The position numbers were made by a program, and so were the translations under genes. Of a DNA stretch of 37,784 nucleotides, positions 3,596 to 30,641 are shown in pieces. A model generated the notes under the pieces. The model had not been told where the DNA came from. It saw only the letters and a program-made list of their open reading frames with translations, and searched no databases. How positions within the stretch are numbered: the stretch's first letter is position 1; each line of letters starts with the position of its first letter. Origin of the DNA: a virus (Duplodnaviria; Heunggongvirae; Uroviricota; Caudoviricetes); IMG/VR virus record IMGVR_UViG_2529292883_000004, positions 1 to 37,784 of that record. One strand, given 5' to 3'.

Positions 3596-6500
3596 TTAAA
3601 CCCAGACTGGATAACGCTCAGACAAGATGCTGAAATCGCTCAGGGATACGCAGTTATAAAACGCATCCGCGTAACTCGTCACGCCAGGCAACTTCTCAAT
3701 GAGCGCACATCCGCTTCCCTGCAATGACCGGCAGTTGTAAAAACAACGGTACACACTGGTTATTTGCGGGTACTCTTCCGCCGGGAGAATGTCATTCACA
3801 TCACTCTCCAGCCCTGTGCAACCGTAAAAGGTGCCCTCAAACGTCGTCGCACTGACGCACCCCGCAAACAAGCCGTCGCCCACAGTGGTCAGCCCCGTAC
3901 AACCGTTAAAGGTCTCTCTGAATGTTGTGACGCTGGCGAGTCCTGCAAACAGTCCGTCTGGTATCGTCATCAGCCCCGTGCAACCATCAAAGGTCTGATA
4001 GAACGATGTCACTCCGGTACAGTTTTCAAACAGCCCGGCAGGCAGCACCGCCAGCCCCGTACAGCCGTAAAAAGTCTGACTGAACGTGGTCACAGCAGTG
4101 TTGTTGTCAAACAACCCTTCCGGCAGTGTCTTCAGACCTGTACAGCCCCGGAACGTCCGGTAAAACGACGTCACACGGTTACAGTTATCAAACAATCCTG
4201 CAGGTAACATCGTCAGCCCCGTACAGCCGAAAAACGTATCCTGGAAAGACCCTGCGCTGACACAACGGTCAAATACCGCCTCAGGCACCGTCGTCAGGGC
4301 GGCACACCGGTAAAATGTCCGGTAGAAGGTTGTCACGCCGTGGCTGCTGTCAAACAGCCCTGCAGGTATTGCTGTCAGCTTCGTGCAGCCACTGAAAGTC
4401 TGATAGAACGACGTCACACCTGTACATCCGTCAAATACACTGTCTCCCAGCGTTGTCAGCTTCGTGCAGTCGTAAAATGTGCCTTCGAACGTCGATGCAC
4501 TGCTGCAGCCTGCAAACGCCCTTTCACCCACCGTTACCAGTTCCGTGCAGCCATAAAACGTCCGGAAGAAGGTCGTCACACGACTACAGTTTTCAAACAG
4601 CCCGGCAGGCAGCGCCTTCAGTCTCACACAGTCGCCAAAGGCATAACTGAACGTCGTCACAGAGACGCAGTTGTCAAACAGCCCTGCCGGTATCGCTGTC
4701 AGAGCCGTACAGCCATAAAAAGCACTACTGAACGTGGTCACGGCAGTGCAGCTGTCAAACATCCCTTCCGGCAATGCCGTCAGTCCCCTGCAGTTATAAA
4801 AAGCACTACTGAACGTCGTCACAGCAGTACAACCTGCAAACACTCCCTCTCCTATGGATGTCAGCCCCGTACAGCCGTAAAACGCCCGGTAGAACGTCGT
4901 AACACTGGTACATCCGGCAAACACGCCGTCTCCCACCGTTGTCAGCCCGGCACAACCATAAAAGGTGTCTTCAAACGTTGTGGCACTGACACAACCGGCA
5001 AACACATTGTCGCCCAGCGTTCTCAGCCCGGAACAACCGTAAAAGGTCCGCCTGAAGGTTGTCACACTTACACAGTCTGCAAACAATCCTGACGGTATCG
5101 CGGTCAGGCCCGTGCATTCGTAAAACGCCTCAAAGAAAGTGGTGACACTGGCGCTGTCAGCGAACAACCCTGCCGGTATCGTTGTCAGCCCCCGGCATCC
5201 CGAAAACACCCCCTCAAACGTCGTGGCACCGGTACAGTCTGCAAATAATCTGGCCGGTACCTCCGACAACCCGGTACATTCGCCAAAAGTCTTATAGAAA
5301 GACTTTGCTCCGGTACAACCGGAAAACAACTCTGCAGGAACTTCCGACAGACGGGTACAACGGTAAAATGTCGTATAGAACGTCGTGGCTCCGGTACAAT
5401 CTGCAAACAATTCCGGGGGGACCATTGCCAGTCCTGTACACCCCAAAAACGACCGGTAAAACGATCTGACACCCGAACAACCAGCAAACACGTCAGCCGG
5501 TATCGTGACCAGTCCGGTGCAACCTTCAAATAAGCTTGCGAATGTTGTGGTACCTGTACAACCAGCAAATACTCTGTCACCCACTGTTGTCAGTGCTCTG
5601 CACCCGTAAAACGCGCTGTCAAACGTCGTGACACTGGTGAGTTTTTCAAATAACCCTGCCGGTATCGTTACCAGCCCCGAGCATCCCGAAAACCCCCCCT
5701 CAAACGTCGCAACCTCTGTGCAGTTTGCGAACAATTTTGCCGGTATCGCTGTCAGGGCCGCGCAGCCATAAAACGTCCGGTTGAATGTCGTCACCCCGGT
5801 ACAACTGTCAAACAACCCTTCCGGTATTGCTGTCAGAGCCGTGCAGCCATAAAAGGCATTACTGAACGTGGTCACGGCAGTGCAGCTGTCAAACATCCCT
5901 TCCGGCAATGCCGTCAGTCCCCTGCAGTTATAAAAAGCCTGGAGGAATGTCGTCACCCCGGTGCAGTCTGCAAATATCCCCTGACCTAATGATGTCAGCG
6001 CCTGGCAGCCATAAAAGGCCTGCAAAAACGTTGTGGCACTGGCACATCCGGCAAACACGCTGTTACCCACCGTGCTCAGTTCCCTGCAGTTATAAAAGAC
6101 CCTGTAAAATGTTGTCGCACTGGTGCACCCGGCAAACACATGGTCCCCCACGGCGCTCAGTCCGGTACAACCATAAAAGGTATCCTCAAACGTCGTGGCA
6201 CCGGTGCACCCGGCAAACACGCTCTCACCCACCGCTCTCAGCCCGGTACAGCCGTAAAACGCCTGACGAAAAGTCGTTACGCCTGTGCAGCCGGCAAACG
6301 CGCTGTCACCGACTGCAGTGAGTCCCGTACATTCGTAAAATGCCTGATAGAACGTCGTGGCGCTGGCGCACTCAGCAAACAGCCCCGGAGGTATCGCAGT
6401 CAGTCCTTTACACCGGTAAAATGCACTGTCGAATGCCGTAGCGTTTTTGCAAAAACGGAATGCGCCGCTGTCAATACTCACCAGACTGGGGGTATTACTC

Positions 6501-15390: not shown

Positions 15391-16893
15391 TTAATCGCTG
15401 CGGCTGTTCAGCCTGAACTGGTTCAGCACCGCAAAGATGCGTAACTGGTTCATCAGGCGGCCCGGCCACACCACGTTCACGCGGTTCGGGTTGTCACTGT
15501 CACGCTCAACCACCACCTGCTCCGCAAACGCATCCGCATTCTGCACGTAGCCGTTGCTCGCCAGCGTCCGGAACCGGGCGATCAGCTCAGCACGAATAAT
15601 CGCAGGTGTGGCTATCGCAGCCCCTGCCGGAATATTCGCGTCGTCATCTGCCAGCTTCATCCGTCCAAACTTCGAGGTCACCTGTGTGCGCATGTCGCGG
15701 CATACATACATCAGCGTGTACATCGTCTCGATCTGCAGGTAGCTGTCGTCTGCCGCACCGTATCGGTTGGTCTGGTACGTGGTGATGGTATTCTCAAGCG
15801 TCACCGTATCGTCGTCCGACACCGTGAAGGTTGAGATACCGCTGTAGAGAAGCGTGTTCCGCTCCGTCAGGGTGAAACGGCTTGCCAGCGGCGGGGCCAG
15901 CACACCGGATACCGGCAGCGTCTGGGTGGGTCTCGCCGGATCGTTGCGGACCGACTGCGCCAGCGCCCCCACCATCGCGGCGGCATAGTCATATGAGGTG
16001 TTCGGACCGTCATACACGCCCCAGAGTGTCATGTGCTGGTCGTTGCGGCGCTCTCCCTTGTCTGCCAGCTCGCCATAGCTGCCGTTTGCCGCCGTGAAGG
16101 CATGGCCGTAAATTTGTTTGTCCCACGCCCAGCGACCTTCGTCATCCGACAGAAAATCCTTCATGTCGTTGAGCGATGTGGTGTCGGAATACGCCAGGAC
16201 AATGAAATCAAACGTGCGGTCGCCCAGAGAGGCGAGCGCATCCGCAAGGTCCGGCGCACCCTCCCCGCCACTCATCGCCGTGATGGTCAGCGTCAGGCCG
16301 TCCGGGGTGGACTCGCCGCCGGATGACCCGAGATAGTTCAGCCGGATATCAATGGTGTTTCCCGTCTCACCGGCATTTCTGGCCGTAAGCTCAACGGTCG
16401 TGCCATCACGGGGCACGGAGGCCGTCACCGGCAGCCCGGAGGTGGCGTTGATTCTGTCTGCCAGCAGACTGGCAATCTCTGCCCGCGTGTACGCTGGCTT
16501 CACCGTCAGGCGCACGCGGGTGCCTGCGATGTACAGGTAAATGATGCCGGATGCCGTCGACACACTGTCAACAGATATACTGCCTGTGGCCGTCGTCATG
16601 CTGCTGTCATCATCTGCCAGCGGCAGCAGCCAGGTCTCTCCGTAGCTGTCATTTTTAAGGTAGGCCATCAGCATGGTATGCAGCATGGAGCCTTCCCCGC
16701 ACAGCCCGGCAGCCATGGAGGCCGATGAACAGCGGTATGCCGTCCCTGCCGTGGCCGTTCCCGCAGCCGTCATCTGACCAATCAGCAGGGTGCGCTGCGT
16801 CTCCGTGGCGCTGTTCGCCATTGAGTTGTCCACTTCAACATAGAACAGTGGCACACGGAGATTTGACGGGATATTGCTGAACGATACCGTCAT
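15391..16893 (-). CDS. Tail sheath protein (Mu gp39/L-like)
   Basis: 500 aa with an N-terminal MTVSFSNIPSNLRVPLFYVEVDNS-type motif as in contractile tail sheaths; followed by tube and chaperone. Confidence 0.8.
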   Translation of the reverse strand: MTVSFSNIPSNLRVPLFYVEVDNSMANSATETQRTLLIGQMTAAGTATAGTAYRCSSASMAAGLCGEGSMLHTMLMAYLKNDSYGETWLLPLADDDSSMTTATGSISVDSVSTASGIIYLYIAGTRVRLTVKPAYTRAEIASLLADRINATSGLPVTASVPRDGTTVELTARNAGETGNTIDIRLNYLGSSGGESTPDGLTLTITAMSGGEGAPDLADALASLGDRTFDFIVLAYSDTTSLNDMKDFLSDDEGRWAWDKQIYGHAFTAANGSYGELADKGERRNDQHMTLWGVYDGPNTSYDYAAAMVGALAQSVRNDPARPTQTLPVSGVLAPPLASRFTLTERNTLLYSGISTFTVSDDDTVTLENTITTYQTNRYGAADDSYLQIETMYTLMYVCRDMRTQVTSKFGRMKLADDDANIPAGAAIATPAIIRAELIARFRTLASNGYVQNADAFAEQVVVERDSDNPNRVNVVWPGRLMNQLRIFAVLNQFRLNSRSD

Positions 16894-17126
16894 GCATCAC
16901 CCCCTTTCGCCGTGCTGGCAGACGTGCTGCCTGTTGCTGTCGTGGACGCGGTCACTTTGCCGGTGGCTGCCGTGGTGGCCCTGTCAGCCAGTACCACATC
17001 CCCCTGCTTCAGGCGGCGTCGCCAGAACAAATCACGATCCGGCACCTCCGCCCCCTCATCAGGCAGCAGACGTGACGGGTCGCCGGGGTAGCGCACCCTG
17101 CGCCCCGGTACAGGTTTCACAAACAT
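16890..17126 (-). CDS. Mu gp38-like small virion protein (DUF2635-like)
   Basis: Start chosen at the ATG at 17126 (MFVKPVPGRRVRYPGDP...) with an AGGAG RBS 7 nt upstream. The MFVKP...DLFWRRRLKQGDVV pattern resembles the family as recalled. Confidence 0.5.
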   Translation of the reverse strand: MFVKPVPGRRVRYPGDPSRLLPDEGAEVPDRDLFWRRRLKQGDVVLADRATTAATGKVTASTTATGSTSASTAKGGDA

Positions 17127-17139
17127 GGAATTTCTCCTG

Positions 17140-17703
17140 TCAGGTTTCACTGCCGGTTTCATCACCGGCAGACAAATCAAAATGCAGGCGGAATGACGGA
17201 TACACGCCGCGCACGTTCACCTCACGCAGCGGGACAATCTCAGACGGGAAGAAATCCTCCGGCCCCTGGTAGTACTCCAGATCCAGCTCCAGCACCACAA
17301 TACCGGTGTGCGCTTCACCGTCGGAATCCACGCCGATATGCGACCGGATCCTGCTGATTTGCTGAAACTTCATGCGGACGTCCGGATTACCGATGACGGC
17401 ACGCTCTATCGCCTCCTTCATCGCCTCCGCCTCTTCCCACGCCACGCCTGCTGCGTTTTCCGTCTCGTCCCCGCTGTCATACGCCAGCACGCGACCGTCG
17501 ATACGCAGGGTCGTGGTGGTGGTGAACTGCGGCACATGCCGCCCCTGTGACACCTTGTGTTCGGACTGCACGGACACAATGATGAGCGGGTACTGGTCCG
17601 GCATCACCGGCAGGGTGCGCGGGGAATACACCCGACCGCCAAAACCGGAACAGTCGTTCAGTGCCCGGGTGACAATTTTTCTGGCTTCTGCGGTATTCAT
17701 CAC
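17140..17703 (-). CDS. Tail completion / Mu gp37-like protein
   Basis: 187-aa ORF between the FII-like gene and the sheath module. Assignment by synteny only. Confidence 0.4.
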   Translation of the reverse strand: MMNTAEARKIVTRALNDCSGFGGRVYSPRTLPVMPDQYPLIIVSVQSEHKVSQGRHVPQFTTTTTLRIDGRVLAYDSGDETENAAGVAWEEAEAMKEAIERAVIGNPDVRMKFQQISRIRSHIGVDSDGEAHTGIVVLELDLEYYQGPEDFFPSEIVPLREVNVRGVYPSFRLHFDLSAGDETGSET

Positions 17704-18035
17704 TTCACCCTGTTCAGTTCAAGTCGCGTGCCGCCGTGGCTGTCCGGTTGCACATCCCGCACGATATACAGCTCCCCCGTGCGCACGATGAGGAAAATAT
17801 CGCCCTGCTTCGGCTTCACGCGACACGCCGCATCCCGCACGCCCAGCACGGGCAGCGTGGAGTTTGATTCCGTGCCCCCGTCCTCGCCGACAAGCTGCTG
17901 CGTGTACGCCCGGTCAAAAATCCCCGTCAGCCGGTACACCTCACCGCCACGCGGGCGGTGTTCGCATTCCTCACCAAACACCCCGAACAACGGGGACAGC
18001 AGGTTTTTGTCCCAGTCAACCGGTCCGGTCATCAC
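17700..18035 (-). CDS. Head-tail joining protein (lambda gpFII-like)
   Basis: 111 aa; the C-terminal part (QGDIFLIVRTGELYIVRDVQPDSHGG) parallels lambda FII (RGDTLTIGEENFWVDRVSPDDGG) as recalled. Confidence 0.6.
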   Translation of the reverse strand: MMTGPVDWDKNLLSPLFGVFGEECEHRPRGGEVYRLTGIFDRAYTQQLVGEDGGTESNSTLPVLGVRDAACRVKPKQGDIFLIVRTGELYIVRDVQPDSHGGTRLELNRVK

Positions 18036-23039: not shown

Positions 23040-25019
23040 TCATCGTCTCACTCCTGCAAGCCTCATATGCAGCGGTATTTTCTTACGGGGTGTCTCCGGT
23101 GCTTTTGCGCCCGGCATACTTAAACTGATTTTTTCTTCCGGCTGCGCGGGAGGCGGCTCCATGAATGACAGATCCTGCGCCGCCCGTTCAGCCAGACTGT
23201 TCAGTTTCAGACCGTGATGCAGCAGCCCCTTCAGGGCCGCGTAACCGTACACCATGCAGTCCAGCGCCTCATTCGCCCGCCCGGCAGACAACTCCCAGAC
23301 ACGGTACACCTGCCCGCCGTTCTCCTTACGCACCAGACGCTCAGAGAGCAGCTGACTGAAATAATGCAAATCCAGAAACGACGGAAAATGGATACAGCCT
23401 GCGGCAGGCGCGCCTGCCGGATCCGGCTCAATATGGAGCCGGTGCCTGATGTCGTCCTTCGCGGAGTTCACCCCCAGAATGACGGGGCGGAAGGATTTCC
23501 GGTTGCGGGACGAAACGACACGCGTCGGCCAGACAGGGTTACGTTTACCGCCCGTCGCCGACTCACCTTTTGTCGCCCAGATACGACGCCCGATACGCGC
23601 CTTCGAGAACTCATACACTTTGTTGGTGTGATGACCGCCCGAGTCATGGCAGACCGCCGAGAGCGTCAGCCCGAAACCGTCAGCCCGCCGCCAGACCTGC
23701 TTCAGATACGCATCAAGGCGCTCCCACGGCTCTTCTGTTTCAAGGTCACCAAAAATCATGTCATGCGCAATCACCCAGCATTCTTCGTTCATGCCCCAGC
23801 CGAGAACGGTGATTTCGAAGCGGTCATCCTGCGTATCCACCCCGGCGGTGAGCAGGAGCACGCCATACGGCACCTCCGCCCCCCAGACCTCAACGCGGGC
23901 GATCAGCCGCTGCTCACTCATCGCAAACTCGCCTGCATCCTCGTAAGGCTCGCCCAGCGTGGTATTGATGAATGTCTGGCGCATCAGCGGATCGTCCTTC
24001 ACCCTCAGCCATTCGGCGACCAGATTCGGCCAGGAGGCATTTGAGTGCGGGCTGTAGCCCGTCCAGATATGAAAACCGGCATGCCCCCTGAATGGTGCAC
24101 CGGCGCGCCATTCGCCTTTTTCCAGCATCCCGGGCAGTTCACTGTGCACAATCACACAGCCGTGGTGGCGGCACAGGTAGTAAGCGGTCTCCGGCAGCCC
24201 GTTATCTTCGCTGTCCTTTTCCCACTTGATGCCGTAAGGGGTGCTTTTGCTGCCCCACTCCAGCACCTGATATTCACCGCAGTGAGGACAGGGCACGAAG
24301 TAGCGGCGCTGATCGCTTTCCAGCCAGGCTTTTTCAATACGGCTCACGCCTTTCACGGTTGGCGTTGAGCCGAGAACAATCTTGCGGTTCCAGAAGGTTT
24401 CGGAACGTTTTGTTCCCAGCGCAATCTGATCCCCTTCGGACCCTGCGCCCCCTGCCGGATACCCGTCCACCTCATCAAAAAGGATGATGCGGCATGTGAT
24501 ACGGCGAAAACCGCCGGGGGAGTTGGCCCCGACCAGCGTGAGGTTTGCGCCGTTGGAAAAGGTTTTGCGAAGAATGGTCTGGTTGCTGTTTTTTGCCTTC
24601 GGGTCGCCGCTGATGGCTGCCAGCACCGGCGTGTCGCGCAGCATCGGGGCAATTTCGGTTTTACTGTAGTCTTCGGCATCCTCCACCCTCGGCTGAACCA
24701 CCAGGATGGGGGACGGATCATGTGCCAGGTAATAGCCCACCACATGATCAAGAATTTTCGTGTATCCCACACGGGCTGATTTCATCACAGACACATACGT
24801 GACTGACGGGTCGGTGATGGCATCCATTATGCCGTCCTGATAGGGATAGGAGCGGAATTTCCCCGTCTGGGCACTGGTCTCACGGGACAGTACAGCGAAG
24901 GTGTTGGCCCACTGGCTTAAGGATAATGGCGGCGGAGGCGCAAGATAACGCGGACACGAAAGCAGCGCATCCTCAAACTGTATCTCCGTGGGTTTCGCGC
25001 CTGTCAAATGCAAGTTCAT
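23040..25019 (-). CDS. Terminase large subunit (lambda gpA-like)
   Basis: 659 aa; motifs VMKSARVGYTK, ILFDEVDGYP, CPHCGEYQVLEWG, FHIWTGYSP and NEALDC parallel lambda A as recalled. Confidence 0.9.
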   Translation of the reverse strand: MNLHLTGAKPTEIQFEDALLSCPRYLAPPPPLSLSQWANTFAVLSRETSAQTGKFRSYPYQDGIMDAITDPSVTYVSVMKSARVGYTKILDHVVGYYLAHDPSPILVVQPRVEDAEDYSKTEIAPMLRDTPVLAAISGDPKAKNSNQTILRKTFSNGANLTLVGANSPGGFRRITCRIILFDEVDGYPAGGAGSEGDQIALGTKRSETFWNRKIVLGSTPTVKGVSRIEKAWLESDQRRYFVPCPHCGEYQVLEWGSKSTPYGIKWEKDSEDNGLPETAYYLCRHHGCVIVHSELPGMLEKGEWRAGAPFRGHAGFHIWTGYSPHSNASWPNLVAEWLRVKDDPLMRQTFINTTLGEPYEDAGEFAMSEQRLIARVEVWGAEVPYGVLLLTAGVDTQDDRFEITVLGWGMNEECWVIAHDMIFGDLETEEPWERLDAYLKQVWRRADGFGLTLSAVCHDSGGHHTNKVYEFSKARIGRRIWATKGESATGGKRNPVWPTRVVSSRNRKSFRPVILGVNSAKDDIRHRLHIEPDPAGAPAAGCIHFPSFLDLHYFSQLLSERLVRKENGGQVYRVWELSAGRANEALDCMVYGYAALKGLLHHGLKLNSLAERAAQDLSFMEPPPAQPEEKISLSMPGAKAPETPRKKIPLHMRLAGVRR

Positions 25020-25590
25020 TCAGCGCCTCGTAAATCAGTTCCTGCAATGCCGCCGTGAATCCCTGATCGTCTGTCATCCCCGCCAGCGCCCGCAGACGGG
25101 GACCATGTTCCGGCGCAAGGGCAACAAGGCGCGTCCTCACCCGGGTATACTCCGCCCCGACCCGCTCAATGATGGGTTTCCAGGGAAGCAGTGTCCCTTT
25201 CTTTTCGTCATACTCGAGTTTTGCCAGCAGCGCGAAGTAGTTCTCTTTCATGGTTCTGGCTTCATCGAGCGTCATCATAGCTCCGTGGCTGGCAATGAAC
25301 TGTTCGACCCGTGCTTCTTTCGATACATCAGAGGAGTCATCGTACAGGGCAATGCTGTTACCTTCGTTGTTACCCGGAGTGTTACCTTCGGGTGTTACCC
25401 TGTTACCGAAAGTGTTACCTTTTTGCTCATTTTTTATTCGGGTAACAGTTTTCCGGTAACGCCGGATCCGCTCGTTTGAGGCATCAACATCGATGTCCTC
25501 ACCGTCCAGAACCAGCCAGCCACGGGCCTTCCACGCCGTTACCGTCTTGCGACTGACACCGTGAAGTTTTGCGAATTCCGCCTGATTCAT
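24973..25590 (-). CDS. Terminase small subunit (Nu1-like)
   Basis: 205 aa with an N-terminal HTH (MNQAEFAKLHGVSRKTVTAWKARGWLVL), just upstream of the large subunit gene. Contains a low-complexity GN-rich linker encoded by GGTAAC repeats. Confidence 0.8.
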   Translation of the reverse strand: MNQAEFAKLHGVSRKTVTAWKARGWLVLDGEDIDVDASNERIRRYRKTVTRIKNEQKGNTFGNRVTPEGNTPGNNEGNSIALYDDSSDVSKEARVEQFIASHGAMMTLDEARTMKENYFALLAKLEYDEKKGTLLPWKPIIERVGAEYTRVRTRLVALAPEHGPRLRALAGMTDDQGFTAALQELIYEALNELAFDRRETHGDTV

Positions 25591-25625
25591 CTGTTACCCT
25601 CTGTTACCTGTTACCCAAATTTCAA
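25350..25625. repeat. Array of at least 9 GGTAAC(A) hexamer repeats inside and just upstream of the small terminase gene (candidate terminase-binding, cosB-like sites)
   Basis: Plus strand shows gttacc repeatedly at 25365..25480, and three more copies immediately 5' of the ATG (minus strand gggtaacaggtaacagagggtaacag-ATG). Confidence 0.55.
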
Positions 25626-25821
25626 AATTTTATAGCTAGCGAAACACCGCGCTCGCGCAATGCCCGTGCAATAACTCGCTCAGGAAGGACCCGTTACCCT
25701 GCCAGGCGACAGTGTCGATATCCGTCTGCGGTTTCAAAAATCTCAAGATAACGATAAATCACAATGCCATCACAAAACCCTGTGATGATTTTTTCACGAC
25801 TGATGGTTTTCATATATTTCC

Positions 25822-26025
25822 TCACGTTTCATCAGACAATAACGCAACCAGATGGCAGGTCGCCTCCTTATTGAGAGGGAACACGAGCGTTTCACCTCCT
25901 GTGCGGTGGATATACAATGTCCTGCCCCCGGATTCATCTCTTTCAACATCAAGATATGAAACAACGGGGCGGCATATCGCTATGCCGCGTTCGCTAATGT
26001 GAGTTTTGTTTATGAGGTTATTCAT
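25822..26025 (-). CDS. Hypothetical small protein
   Basis: 67-aa ORF with no recognisable motif; orientation matches the late operon. Coding status uncertain. Confidence 0.25.
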   Translation of the reverse strand: MNNLINKTHISERGIAICRPVVSYLDVERDESGGRTLYIHRTGGETLVFPLNKEATCHLVALLSDET

Positions 26026-26110
26026 GGGAATACTCTCCGAATTAAATACACTTCTGGAAAAGATACCACTCTGAAAAAAACTTCAGTCAGTCCCACAGGA
26101 AATAGAAGAT

Positions 26111-26302
26111 TTGAAGCGAAGAGTTGCTGAACTGGAATCGAACCATTGTTCTGCAACCAGCGCACAATTCTGTCCCAAATGCCAAAGAGCGTCTTTTCAG
26201 CTCGACAGAACTGAAAATGATCCAACATTTGGAGTATTAGGCCTTCAGCGGGACATTTATGTTTGCAGAGAGTGTGGTTACTCTCGCCATGAATCACGTT
26301 AA
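26111..26302 (+). CDS. Hypothetical small zinc-ribbon protein (CxxC...CxxC), opposite strand to the late operon
   Basis: 63-codon ORF with a TTG start and paired CxxC motifs (CPKC ... CREC). It overlaps a minus-strand ORF of odd composition. Only one of the two is likely real. Confidence 0.3.
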   Translation: MKRRVAELESNHCSATSAQFCPKCQRASFQLDRTENDPTFGVLGLQRDIYVCRECGYSRHESR

Positions 26303-26350
26303 TAAAAACGCTGCTGGCACGTTCTTTCTTCAGGGCAGCAATGCCCTGCA

Positions 26351-27016
26351 TCACTTCGCCGTCTTTAAAGCCTGTTCAAGCACCACACTCAGCTCCGTCT
26401 TCATGAGACGCGATGCCATGTTGTGCGCCAGCGCCTGATAACCCAGTACCGGCGTGACCGGCAGTGCATCACCAAAACGTATCAACAGCTTTGGTGAGCG
26501 GCTTTTTTTGCGGGGAGCGCGTGTGCCATTGGGGGAGCGTTTTCTCCGCTTCCTGGTTTTTGCCACTTTTTTCGCTTTCTTACGCTGCCAGACGCCACCA
26601 ACATCCTCACCATAGTTGTTCGTCACCTTACCGATGAACACATCCGGTCTGGCCTTCAGCTGTTGCAGTTTTGCCTTTGGCAGGTTGCCGTATTTGTTCA
26701 GCCGGATATTTTTCGGGTTCAGTACAGCTTTCTGCCCCTCACCGAGATAATGCAGCCCGCCCACCTCAAAGGGTTCAAGGTAAGGCACGGCGGTATCCAT
26801 GATGAACACCCGACCGGTCAGATTGTCCCTTGTTGCCCCTTTTGAGCGCACCGAGTTCACGGTGAACGGCGTCGGGTTATCCAGCTTCCGGCGAAGGTTT
26901 TCTTTCTCTGCCGCTTCAATTTTTCTCACCGTGGCAGTGATGGCGCGCGCAGTGGCAAAACGCACCTGCTTCTGCATTCCCAGAAGCTGTCTGTGAAGGT
27001 CGTTAAGGTCAGCCAT
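26351..27016 (-). CDS. Hypothetical protein with a strongly basic K/R-rich C-terminal segment
   Basis: Start chosen at the ATG at 27016 (MADLNDLHRQ...) with an AGGTGG RBS. Contains KKAKKVAKTRKRRKRSPNGTRAPRKKSRSPK. No family recognised. Confidence 0.55.
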   Translation of the reverse strand: MADLNDLHRQLLGMQKQVRFATARAITATVRKIEAAEKENLRRKLDNPTPFTVNSVRSKGATRDNLTGRVFIMDTAVPYLEPFEVGGLHYLGEGQKAVLNPKNIRLNKYGNLPKAKLQQLKARPDVFIGKVTNNYGEDVGGVWQRKKAKKVAKTRKRRKRSPNGTRAPRKKSRSPKLLIRFGDALPVTPVLGYQALAHNMASRLMKTELSVVLEQALKTAK

Positions 27017-27083
27017 ATTCCACCTTCTCATGCTGCATTATCGCAGCCCCTCACTGAAGGGCTGCCCGGATTAACCAGCAGAA

Positions 27084-27615
27084 TCACACCATTCCGGGCA
27101 AATACATTTGCACTTCATTTGCTGCTCTCTCACGAGCAACATGAAGCAATCTTTTTCGCCCACCAACGCCCCACTTAGCCATTTGGCTTGCGCACTGGCT
27201 TATCGCTTTGGTTTCAGTATTGATGATGTGATCGATTCTATTCAGACGGGACATTGCGCCAACGCCGAGACGGACAACCGTTTTGAAAACTTCATAAACT
27301 TCGATTTCAAATTCCGGCTTAATCCATGCTGCATATCTGATTGCCAAAAGTTCAACACCCCACACACCTGGTTCTGCACCACCTTTGATTATTTTAAGTG
27401 GTTGAATTTTTTTCCAAAGTGCTTTTTTGCACTTTGGCCTCCAGTGCTTTTATGAAGCGTTTTATCTGCGCGCTACGCAAAAACTGGCTTGGGCGCTGTT
27501 GCTCTGTAGCCTCTCCATTTGCAACTGCTGCTGCATGGAGATCGTTTAAGTTGTAGCGTCCGTCCTCATCAATACGAACGGACACACCATTGACAATAAC
27601 TGTTTGGTACTTCAT
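27084..27615 (-). pseudogene. KilA-N domain gene split by a frameshift at a T7/A7 homopolymer
   Basis: ORF 27394..27615 (MKYQTVIVNGVSVRIDEDGRYNLNDLHAAA...) and ORF 27084..27365 (...GVELLAIRYAAWIKPEFEIEVYEV...) together match a KilA-N domain but are in different frames. The junction is at the run of seven T at plus 27407..27413. Confidence 0.6.
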
Positions 27616-27817: not shown

Positions 27818-28255
27818 TTATTTCAGGCACTGAGTTCTGATGTACTCCTGCAGGTAGTTAACCTGCGCGGTTATCCTGTCGATTCCACTTCGGAGACGGT
27901 AATAATTGAGTTCAGCATCTGCTGTAAGTCCTGGGCTTTCTCCATCGCCCATGCTGCTGGCTCCGGTCGTTGACTTTGCACAGGTGGCGGCGACTTGCAG
28001 GCGCTTACGACCAGCAGAAACATCAGCACGGAGGCTTTCGATAGTCGCGTTAGCATTAGCAAGCTCCTTTGTGTATCTGGCGTCAAGTTCTGCTAAATCA
28101 CGTTGACGCTTCTGCATGTCAGCGATTGTGGATGCGGCCTTATCGCGCTGCTCTTTGTAGGTAATGGCATTATTACGGTAATGATTAACAGCCAATGACA
28201 GGCAGACAATGATGCAGAAAACCAGAGGGGAGATAATCGCAGTAACTCTGCTCAT
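27818..28255 (-). CDS. Rz-like i-spanin
   Basis: 145 aa with an N-terminal transmembrane segment ([16 protein letters not shown]) then a coiled-coil-like periplasmic domain; contains an embedded +1-frame lipoprotein ORF. Confidence 0.8.
27871..28056 (-). CDS. Rz1-like o-spanin lipoprotein, embedded in Rz
   Basis: Embedded ORF with signal peptide plus lipobox ([20 protein letters not shown]) followed by a proline-rich segment ([13 protein letters not shown]). Start chosen at the internal ATG. Confidence 0.7.
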
Positions 28256-28270: not shown

Positions 28271-28654
28271 TCAGCGCTTCAGCTGGAAATGTGGTCCGTC
28301 TTTCAGTGTTTTCCAGTCCCCGCCCCATTCGATGGCGATTCCCAGCTCTGCACCAGCCAGCTTAAATGCCTGTGCGATTTTCTCGTACAGAGGCCAGTCC
28401 CATGACACCTGGCTGCCAACGTAGGCCACAACATCCACTGCATCACCGGTCAGGTGACGGCTGTTCATGGTCTGACTTTTTCCTTCCGCGACCAGTTGTT
28501 TCTGGCGCTCTTTCGTGCGCAGACCTTCCGTAATACCAAAATCAACCTCCGTCAGTTCAAGGGCACGGCGAACTACAGCAACCAGCTGTGGTTTAACACC
28601 CTCCAGATTTTTCTCGCTCCGGCGGCTGAATCTGAATTTACCCGACATATTCAC
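28271..28654 (-). CDS. Endolysin, peptidase M15 family (L-alanyl-D-glutamate peptidase-like)
   Basis: 127 aa with an HxxxxxxD...DxxH pattern (SRHLTGDAVDV...WGGDWKTLKDGPHFQL) typical of M15/VanY-like phage endolysins. Confidence 0.75.
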   Translation of the reverse strand: MNMSGKFRFSRRSEKNLEGVKPQLVAVVRRALELTEVDFGITEGLRTKERQKQLVAEGKSQTMNSRHLTGDAVDVVAYVGSQVSWDWPLYEKIAQAFKLAGAELGIAIEWGGDWKTLKDGPHFQLKR

Positions 28655-28926
28655 CTCAACAATGGAAAGATTCTTGTGACGTTCCCGCGTGCGCGTATCA
28701 CCAGCACGCAGAACAGCAGATTAAAAAACACCTCCAGCCAGCCCGTTGCTAACGAGCGACCACACAGATAGCTGAGGGGGGCAAAGGCATACAGCAGCAT
28801 CAGCAGCCAGGCCAGCCATGACATCAGCGGTTTGTGCCTGGAGTCACGACGACGATAAAAAAAGAGCGTCAGCACGATAACCGTGCATAACGCCACATTC
28901 AGCAATCCGGGAAGGTTACTTAACAT
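28651..28926 (-). CDS. Holin/antiholin-like small membrane protein
   Basis: 91 aa with 2-3 hydrophobic helices, between the first holin-like gene and the endolysin. Confidence 0.55.
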   Translation of the reverse strand: MLSNLPGLLNVALCTVIVLTLFFYRRRDSRHKPLMSWLAWLLMLLYAFAPLSYLCGRSLATGWLEVFFNLLFCVLVIRARGNVTRIFPLLR

Positions 28927-29308
28927 TGCCGCCTCCTCCGCCCCGCAGGCGCGAGAACAGACCAGACACCAGTGATGCGATATCCTGCTGGTGGATGAAT
29001 GACATAATCTTTACCGACACCAGCGATACCAGCACCGCACACAATGCATCTGCAGACGTGCCGTCATAACCAGTTTTTGATGCCACCCAGGCTGAAAGCA
29101 AACGCGCACCCAGTACGCCGACGATAAATGACACAAGAAAATGTGCCGCCACCCGCCATGCTGAAAGCGCCTGCGGTATCGTTGCAACAAACAACGCCCC
29201 CGCAAATGCGCCAAACACAATCCCGAAATCCGTTCCGGTAAACAGCCCGAAAACAGTCGCCCCACCGAGCGCAGCAGCTGTGCCGGAACCGGATAAGGGT
29301 TCAGACAT
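28916..29308 (-). CDS. Holin-like membrane protein (first gene of the lysis cassette)
   Basis: Start chosen at the ATG at 29308 (MSEPLSGSG...) with an AGGAG RBS 7 nt upstream. Gly/Ala-rich transmembrane helices. Confidence 0.6.
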   Translation of the reverse strand: MSEPLSGSGTAAALGGATVFGLFTGTDFGIVFGAFAGALFVATIPQALSAWRVAAHFLVSFIVGVLGARLLSAWVASKTGYDGTSADALCAVLVSLVSVKIMSFIHQQDIASLVSGLFSRLRGGGGGNVK

Positions 29309-29348
29309 ACTTTTTCTCCTGTAAATTAAAAAAGGCCACCAGCGGACC

Positions 29349-29395
29349 AAAAAAAACACCACACCAAAGACATCCGCAGATGCCTTTGTGTGGTG
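29349..29395 (-). terminator. Strong rho-independent terminator immediately upstream of the lysis cassette
   Basis: Minus strand caccacacaaag-(loop)-ctttggtgtggtg with a 12-bp stem followed by T8. Confidence 0.65.
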
Positions 29396-30487: not shown

Positions 30488-30562
<75 letters not shown>

Positions 30563-30565
30563 ATA

Positions 30566-30641
<76 letters not shown>

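Follow-up and report, generated by a model that had tools for sequence, protein, structure and literature searches.

The slot between the lysis genes and the terminase often carries morons in lambdoid phages. Tail completion proteins (TCPs) form a class that, to our knowledge, is poorly understood, and we know of only one TCP that has been located in a virion. We take lambda gpZ, HK97 gp10, SPP1 gp16.1 and 80alpha gp51 to be members of this class. In the neck of 80alpha, a single TCP copy occupies the lumen, where its two helices form a bundle with tape-measure protein N-termini, a loop caps the DNA end, and a positive face is turned towards the DNA (PMC11661146). Head-tail joining and proper DNA routing both depend on SPP1 gp16.1, and in Mu and P2 the TCP genes are encoded away from the canonical slot (PMC11099176).

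Here we describe a locus that brings both subjects together. It lies in a stretch of 37,784 nucleotides of phage DNA (IMG/VR record IMGVR_UViG_2529292883_000004), hereafter the window. The explanation that we propose has three parts, and we regard it as likely to hold as a whole: a 221-aa protein encoded upstream of cos is the TCP of the phage, a two-gene cassette of 646 bp sits beside cos, and a 110-aa ORF in the same segment is a shadow of one of the cassette genes.

Organization of the right end

The ORF listing and the family scans of the window place the late operon on the minus strand. Read from right to left, the order is holins, endolysin, Rz, KilA-N, 221-aa gene, small ORFs, cos-like region, terS and terL. 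Beyond terL come a lambda-like head module and the genes of a contractile tail like that of Mu, among them DUF2635, sheath, tube and assembly chaperone. The genes that surround the segment under study, which is the final 1.2 kb ahead of cos, are the following:

28916-29362 and 28651-28926, minus strand: two holins, from family scans
28271-28654, minus strand: M15 endolysin
27818-28255, minus strand: Rz
27394-27615 and 27084-27365, minus strand: split KilA-N gene
24973-25590, minus strand: terS
23040-25019, minus strand: GpA-type terL
25591..25699, unstranded: cos region, from repeats and a conserved motif; the intergenic cos-like stretch reaches 25821

This interval makes up the right end of a temperate phage that packages from cos, has a terminase and head of lambda type, and carries a contractile tail of Mu type. 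No Rfam family was found in 25400-27300. Within the cos region, the sequence TGTTACC occurs three times at 25592-25615 and a fourth GTTACC is found at 25693-25698; these repeats look like cosB-type terS sites, as far as can be predicted. Between them lies a motif, GCGCGCAATGCCCGTGCAATA...GGAAGGACCC (25650-25692), which is conserved in the E. coli prophage L002, in phage phiNP and in an Ewingella prophage. The deposited right terminus of the linear Serratia phage BZS1 falls inside this motif, at approximately 25664 in window coordinates.

A probable gpZ-like protein encoded upstream of cos

The 221-aa gene and its relevant elements are located as follows:

26351..27016, minus strand: predicted TCP gene, 221 aa, lambda gpZ / HK97 gp10 class; last structural gene before cos
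27020..27026, minus strand: Shine-Dalgarno AAGGTGG for the 221-codon start at 27016, read from the sequence
26489..26587, minus strand: basic loop, codons 144-176, within the apical beta domain; proposed DNA-facing surface

An alternative version of the ORF, with 226 codons, begins at 27031. The 221-codon start is preferred because homologs begin MADL (more generally, MADL/MAxL) and because it is preceded by the Shine-Dalgarno sequence listed above.

The sequence-only reading of this DNA had noted an extremely K/R-rich tail and no recognisable family. The richness in K and R stands, with 18 such residues in 33 and zero D/E, and is conserved in close homologs; its placement in a tail does not, as the basic stretch is an internal loop (144-176) that is followed by a conserved beta-strand and then by a 28-residue C-terminal helix. 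The net charge of the loop is +18 in the window protein and positive in 65 of 65 diverse family members (median, +8), while that of the whole protein is +29, with a family median of +23 (65 members). As for the family, a match to phrog_1924 ('minor tail protein') was found at E 6.7e-50, covering residues 6-226 and positions 6-237 of the 237 in the profile, along with a match to phrog_27 ('tail completion or Neck1') at E 9.4e-4. More than 1277 homologs were detected in a database clustered at 90%, and a search of 1.84 billion representatives with the family profile yielded 2884 clusters at E<=1e-3. The claim that the protein belongs to no family must therefore be dropped, even if Pfam and NCBIfam searches gave no match. 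No stated experimental basis was found for the 'minor tail protein' label, be it that of phrog_1924 or that on the Rhodobacter phages.

Structure prediction was performed with AF2. A first model, built with 29 close homologs, had a pLDDT of 59.6 and was left out of fold searching. When the alignment was made of 65 sequences, distant representatives included, pLDDT was 91.8 and pTM was 0.78. In the model, helix 4-44 leads into a beta domain that spans 56-182, and helix 193-220 closes the chain. The TCP fold is arranged in this way, with two long helices, one at each terminus and packed together, and a beta element or extended loop between them. In BFVD, the models matched by Foldseek bear the names HK97 gp10 family, Neck Ne1 or tail component. 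The best structural match of the model is the solved TCP of 80alpha, with 105 of its 109 residues covered; in the Foldseek search of the PDB nothing reached significance, and 9mu2_P appeared at E 3.2.

Profile comparisons point to a remote, marginal link with lambda gpZ. The alignment of the 221-aa family with gpZ by hhalign is collinear and extends over the full length (E 1.1e-3), and when all lambda ORFs were searched with the family HMM, gpZ was the sole match (E 3.2e-4), neither Nu1 nor FI being retrieved. Pfam Minor_tail_Z was weakly matched by 8 of the 65 family members, with a best E of 4.7e-4 that is below threshold. The curated TCP models PF04883, PF06763 and TIGR01725 gave no above-threshold match to the 221-aa protein. 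No profile similarity between the family and HK97 gp10 was found, the PDB sequences searched with the family profile gave no match, and comparison with Mu gpG yielded nothing significant (hhalign E 0.018, restricted to the N-terminus).

In the neck cluster of the window (16890-18035), which holds genes for an FII-like protein, a 187-aa protein and a DUF2635 protein, no second TCP candidate was detected. The 187-aa protein was considered as a paralog of the 221-aa family and rejected on comparison; similarity between this protein and Mu gp37 was not detectable either.

On the basis of the fold model, the BFVD matches, the links to gpZ and the lack of another TCP candidate in the neck cluster, we conclude that the 221-aa protein is most probably the TCP of the phage, and that it is closest to the gpZ type. 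Profile and structure searches had been proposed by the sequence-only reading as a check on its view of the protein; their outcome suggests a routine virion component, of the TCP class.

Linkage of the gene to cos and terminase

The 221-aa gene lies outside the head-closure/tail-terminator slot that is canonical in siphophages, upstream of cos and terS. All ten contexts examined show the same placement: the gene directly precedes terS/GpA-type terL or stands at the right cos end. In E. coli prophages, the gene is found beside terminase and cos both in the presence and in the absence of the small ORFs. Terminase- or cos-adjacent homologs are also found in Citrobacter phiNP, Serratia BZS1, the Ewingella prophage and one IMG/VR contig, as well as in Acetobacter phiAP1 and a Ralstonia phage. 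Homologs are likewise placed in the Rhodobacter and Dinoroseobacter siphophages RcCronus and R4C, which have cos ends (PMC8601537). The linkage spans Alpha-, Beta- and Gammaproteobacteria, whatever the tail type, and such constancy of association with cos and terminase is what is distinctive here. To judge from these comparisons, the gene is a fixed, syntenic late gene and not a sporadic insert.

Strict linkage has a second side, as it keeps alive a minority view in which the 221-aa protein is an accessory of DNA packaging (a cos-binding protein or terminase cofactor, in a position like that of HK97 gp74) and not a virion TCP. Constant proximity to cos and to terS/GpA-type terL, across proteobacterial classes and tail types, would fit a packaging role equally well; the strongly basic character of the protein (net charge, +29) and the location of its gene away from the canonical TCP position also speak for it. 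However, a solved TCP tops the structural matches and the viral models matched are those of HK97 gp10 and Ne1; the only lambda protein retrieved is gpZ, and not Nu1 or FI; and TCP genes in non-canonical positions have precedents in Mu and P2 (PMC11099176). We consider a packaging factor improbable, and a TCP the better interpretation.

If the protein is a TCP, the 80alpha neck provides the analogy from which we infer its location in the virion, its stoichiometry and its contact with DNA. One copy would probably reside in the neck lumen, and the apical beta domain with its K/R loop would be turned towards the DNA end that is packaged last, the right cos end, and keep hold of it. Such a hold on the DNA end might permit productive head-tail joining and also DNA routing upon infection. 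The positive loop and the positive net charge of the family fit a DNA-facing role. Because the family is always encoded beside cos, an additional reading is that it may cap the right cohesive end in a sequence-specific manner, a role that is said to have been proposed once for lambda gpZ.

The zinc-ribbon gene and its stop codon

Between the 221-aa gene and cos, the small ORFs are arranged on both strands:

26024..26302, plus strand: coiled-coil and zinc-ribbon gene of 92 codons, predicted pseudogene in the window; antisense to the late operon, with eight full-length homologs
26072..26074, plus strand: in-frame TGA at codon 17, in place of an invariant Trp (TGG)
26111..26302, plus strand: 63-codon CxxC...CxxC ORF, the one noted first; the part of the predicted pseudogene after the first in-frame TTG beyond the stop
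25822..26025, minus strand: p67, a 67-aa gene and divergent partner; intact, in a conserved head-to-head register
26022..26354, minus strand: 110-aa ORF, predicted to be a spurious shadow opposite the zinc-ribbon gene; no diverged homologs, frame closed in relatives

The zinc-ribbon frame is open for 92 codons from the ATG at 26024, save for the single TGA at 26072-26074, and a GAGG Shine-Dalgarno sequence stands 6 nt upstream. When the frame was read through the TGA, eight full-length homologs were found (91-96 aa, 51-65% identity), with Salmonella, Photorhabdus, Ewingella, and metagenome and read-archive assemblies as sources. Their pN values (0.20-0.35) are low compared with pS, which is saturated (0.77-0.93). 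The existence of these homologs and the low pN argue that the zinc-ribbon gene is real, and that the 110-aa ORF on the opposite strand is its shadow.

Codon 17 encodes Trp in eight of the eight full-length homologs. The TGA found at this codon in the window is common to seven of the other eight E. coli-type alleles; the eighth (L031) has kept TGG and presents an independent CGA->TGA change at codon 32. In the window, the zinc-ribbon gene is apparently a pseudogene. Of the candidates set against each other in the earlier reading, the plus-strand zinc ribbon is the one to prefer over the overlapping minus-strand ORF, as indicated by the homologs, the pN/pS values and the closure of the antisense frame in relatives, yet the gene seems to be inactive in this phage.

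One might argue that the gene is still functional, either because near-cognate tRNA-Trp reads past the UGA or because translation restarts at TTG 26111, which would give a 63-aa product with the zinc ribbon only. The TGA replaces TGG and is followed by A, the rest of the frame is open, AGGA is present 11 nt upstream of the TTG, and most E. coli alleles hold the TGA state. A restart would lose, however, the 16 N-terminal residues, where conservation in the family is highest. Furthermore, variant sites among the E. coli zinc-ribbon alleles are nonsynonymous in 6 cases and synonymous in 2; the allele that keeps Trp17 has a second, independent nonsense mutation; and the partner gene, p67, has been disrupted twice. 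Together these observations form a pattern of relaxed constraint. Residual function is thus doubtful in our opinion, and we favour a pseudogene.

A moron-like cassette with overlapping start codons

The zinc-ribbon gene and p67 are the two genes of an accessory cassette, listed here with two hairpins:

25700..26345, no strand assigned: accessory (moron-like) cassette, 646 bp, from the indel relative to cassette-less relatives
25767..25788, terminator-like score on both strands: hairpin at the left cassette edge, downstream of p67
26331..26348, between the convergent ends of the zinc-ribbon and TCP genes: 7-bp hairpin CAGGGCA-GCAA-TGCCCTG, read from the sequence and not followed by a T-run

Homology with the E. 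coli prophage L002, which has no cassette, stops at 25699 and restarts at 26346; the two points are separated by 14 bp in L002, and the flanking DNA is 95-97% identical. The cassette is also absent from phiNP. In Ewingella, it occupies the same slot as in the window; in Salmonella, its place is among HicAB modules, with Q on one side and the holin gene on the other; and in another contig, from IMG/VR, it lies upstream of the TCP gene. Its orientation is constant in five independent contexts: p67 reads in the direction of the late operon, to which the zinc-ribbon gene is antisense. An indel that is found in several slots and bears a gene antisense to the late operon has the hallmarks of a moron, and the cassette appears to be a moron-like mobile module.

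The start codons of p67 and the zinc-ribbon gene overlap by 2 nt (CATG), and the Shine-Dalgarno sequence of each gene sits within the first five codons of its partner; that of p67, GGAGAG, is found within zinc-ribbon codons 4-5. ORFs of the p67 type, head to head with a zinc-ribbon gene, are present in Salmonella, Ewingella, Photorhabdus, Xenorhabdus, Arsenophonus and several IMG/VR contigs, and the CATG register of p67 is conserved at more than 10 loci. The small ORFs had been described as mutually exclusive. This is correct for the 110-aa ORF and the zinc-ribbon gene, but not for the 67-aa ORF, which overlaps the zinc-ribbon gene by only 2 nt at the starts, both genes being conserved.

Four independent disruptions of cassette genes were counted among nine E. 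coli alleles. Two of these alleles carry a p67 that is broken by a frameshift or by a nonsense change; the p67 of the window is undamaged. The loss of the zinc-ribbon gene in the window (W17 -> stop) suggests that the cassette is a decaying remnant there, and decay seems to be under way in the E. coli-type lineage.

Mobility of the moron-like cassette has consequences for the idea that this region is a moron slot. The idea gains support for the small ORFs, which make an indel of 646 bp in DNA that is otherwise 95-97% identical and reside in varied slots, but fails for the 221-aa gene, whose position is fixed. A role of the 221-aa protein as a lysogenic-conversion product expressed in the lysogen, as the sequence-only reading had it, is hard to sustain. 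Location between the lysis genes and the terminase, and lack of a Pfam family, would speak for such a product. Against it, the position of the gene is invariable in every related phage examined, including phages with a proven lytic cycle; the gene is co-oriented with the late operon; the scanned interval has no promoter-like site upstream of it on the minus strand, the only such sites being on the plus strand (25791-25918); and the protein has a TCP fold. A TCP remains the preferred interpretation, and a conversion gene is very unlikely.

The shadow ORF

A search of 5.8 billion proteins found no homolog of the 110-aa ORF below 96% identity, and its antisense frame is closed in the Salmonella, Ewingella and L010 homologs of the cassette. 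The ORF appears to be a non-coding shadow of the zinc-ribbon gene. The opposite possibility, that the 110-aa ORF is the real gene and the plus-strand ORF is fortuitous, can be dismissed as extremely unlikely: even though it is the longest uninterrupted ORF of the segment, abuts the 221-aa gene in operon fashion and has been annotated by PGAP in one relative (L001; NZ_CP035879), it has no homolog under 96% identity, its frame is closed in diverged relatives, and the opposite frame, with its eight full-length homologs, is under strong purifying selection. In terms of annotation, the 110-aa CDS called by PGAP should be removed, while the pseudogene and its 67-aa partner, now unannotated, should be added.

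Possible functions of the divergent pair

Searches of PADLOC, NCBIfam, Pfam, PHROGs and PDB sequences gave no usable assignment for p67 or the zinc-ribbon protein. Matches to Lar (restriction alleviation) were weak and not significant (E 0.04-0.13). The zinc ribbon of IS1595-type transposases, PF12760, was matched by seven of the eight zinc-ribbon homologs with a best E of 1.8e-5, which is below the gathering threshold. Homologs also match positions 1-68 of the 205 in phrog_8828 ('HNH endonuclease'), with E down to 2.5e-11, and no Pfam HNH match was obtained for them.

Several candidates were considered and rejected:

(i). A degenerate HNH nuclease related to the cos-proximal gp74 of HK97 was discarded because the HNH motif is absent and the hhalign comparison with gp74 gave E 0.59.

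(ii). Type II toxin-antitoxin modules consist of two co-directional genes in one operon, usually with a stop/start overlap. In the cassette, the genes are divergent, the overlap is start/start, and no toxin-antitoxin or defence family was matched.

(iii). An operator role is not proposed for a palindrome that lies ahead of the zinc-ribbon gene, as it was found in only three of nine homologs with a seed length of at least 6.

Promoter scans gave no site that exceeded chance expectation, nor one whose position was conserved in the homologs.

The likeliest reading, to which we attach low confidence, is that the prophage produces the zinc-ribbon protein as an accessory protein that forms a dimer and binds nucleic acid. 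The combination of a coiled coil and a zinc ribbon, the head-to-head overlap and the fixed orientation relative to late transcription suggest that expression of the two genes may be mutually exclusive. Tentatively, late read-through transcription might silence the zinc-ribbon gene by antisense interference and at the same time express p67, and p67 could be a partner or an antagonist of the zinc-ribbon protein; the expression switch and the partner relationship are both read from the gene arrangement alone.

A bolder proposal is that the pair would be a previously undescribed accessory system of prophages, concerned for instance with defence, exclusion or anti-defence. Through the head-to-head overlap of their start codons and 5' ends, the two genes would be set up for mutually exclusive expression: the lysogen would produce the zinc-ribbon protein, which would be shut off, and opposed by p67, upon late read-through. 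If so, the repeated independent knockouts in E. coli would mean that this protein is costly. We view such a system as speculative and rather unlikely; a cap for the cos end is the more modest of the two proposals. In any case, the cassette offers, in little space, a pair of conserved divergent genes whose start codons overlap.

Comparison with known systems

The cassette resembles classical lambdoid morons (bor, lom, HK97 gp15, stx) in that it is a late-region indel between near-identical prophages, has a gene antisense to late transcription and is found in several slots. In contrast with those morons, which are single genes with a promoter and a terminator of their own, it is made of two head-to-head genes whose starts overlap, and it seems to be inactivated in the window. 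The zinc-ribbon protein shares a four-Cys ribbon with IS1595-type transposases and with the N-terminal module of phrog_8828, but has neither a transposase nor an HNH catalytic domain.

For the 221-aa protein, a practical consequence is that a widespread family of 'hypothetical proteins' for which Pfam and NCBIfam have no model can now be labelled as gpZ-like TCPs. A large TCP clade with an exaggerated basic loop and linkage to cos and terminase may also be a handy system for tests of cohesive-end recognition.

Compared with gp51 of 80alpha (PDB 9mu2 chain P; HK97 gp10 family), the 221-aa protein is twice as long and shows 14% identity; it has, in addition, a beta domain of roughly 125 residues and a K/R loop of 33. 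Packaging is headful in 80alpha, whereas the window phage uses cos. Lambda gpZ (PF06763) is closer: both proteins have a helix at each end, an additional beta domain and a stretch of basic residues, share a G-x-W-x-x-QR motif and a hydrophobic strand ahead of the C-terminal helix, and come from cos phages with a GpA-type terminase. They differ in that identity is only about 20%, with the 221-aa protein under the Pfam threshold, and the Arg/Lys run is placed elsewhere. Gene position differs too: the gpZ gene lies between FII and U, while the 221-aa gene is upstream of cos and terS, in a phage whose tail is contractile and Mu-like. For a displaced TCP gene in a contractile-tailed phage, Mu gpG and P2 gpS provide precedents, and the tail module of the window is also Mu-like.

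Mosaic structure upstream of the tail completion protein gene

The tail completion protein (TCP) gene, which lies between the lysis gene Rz and the cos region, is bordered on its upstream side by the following features:

27036-27062: GC-rich 7-bp hairpin (GCAGCCC...GGGCTGC), directly upstream of the TCP gene
27084-27615, minus strand: KilA-N-type ORF pair with family matches to KilA-N / phrog_129
30488-30641, minus strand: two tRNA genes, tRNA-Gly(tcc) and tRNA-Thr(tgt), upstream of the lysis cassette

A stretch of 31 nt that spans the hairpin is 100% identical to Stx2e phage phiP27, and the adjoining 33 nt are 100% identical to P22-like Salmonella phages. These matches indicate a mosaic junction. 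Rz and the TCP gene are separated by two neighbouring ORFs of 73 aa and 93 aa in differing frames, which match the N-terminal and the C-terminal half of KilA-N / phrog_129, an arrangement that looks like a frameshifted pseudogene of a KilA-N-type regulator. Both tRNA genes are also annotated in an E. coli relative.

The TCP allele of E. coli ST2350 (NZ_CP031321) carries a compensated pair of frameshifts within the K/R-rich basic loop, and the resulting protein (P0004, 222 aa) has an altered loop sequence that retains its basic character. This allele suggests that the loop tolerates changes in sequence provided that charge is kept.

The p67/zinc-ribbon cassette and the cos-like region

Next to the TCP gene lies a cassette made of p67 and the zinc-ribbon gene, arranged head-to-head with start codons that overlap in CATG. 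Relevant features are:

25969-25988: perfect 8+8 palindrome, GCGGCATA-TCGC-TATGCCGC, within p67 codons 13-20
25591-25699: cos-like region with TGTTACC repeats and a conserved motif
6001-6267 of a Cupriavidus pampae (betaproteobacterium) locus: zinc-ribbon homolog, 47% identity

The zinc-ribbon ATG is found around 45 nt downstream of the palindrome. Salmonella and Photorhabdus homologs harbor different palindromes at the same site (7+7, CTTACAT/ATGTAAG, and 6+6), and the remaining homologs have none there. The palindrome could be an operator, an RNA hairpin or a product of chance.

In two Salmonella prophage contigs, the intact cassette occupies the stretch from Q to the holin gene, with a HicA/HicB pair on one side and another HicB-like gene on the other. 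This stretch looks like a hotspot for small accessory modules. The C. pampae homolog has no ORF facing it head-to-head through CATG in the corresponding register, so the pairing may be specific to Enterobacterales.

In the cos-like region, three TGTTACC repeats adjoin the terS start, and a fourth copy, GTTACC, is located at 25693-25698. The motif GCGCGCAATGCCCGTGCAATA...GGAAGGACCC is common to Citrobacter phage phiNP, an Ewingella prophage and E. coli relatives, and the deposited right end of the linear Serratia phage BZS1 maps within it, at ~25664 in the window.
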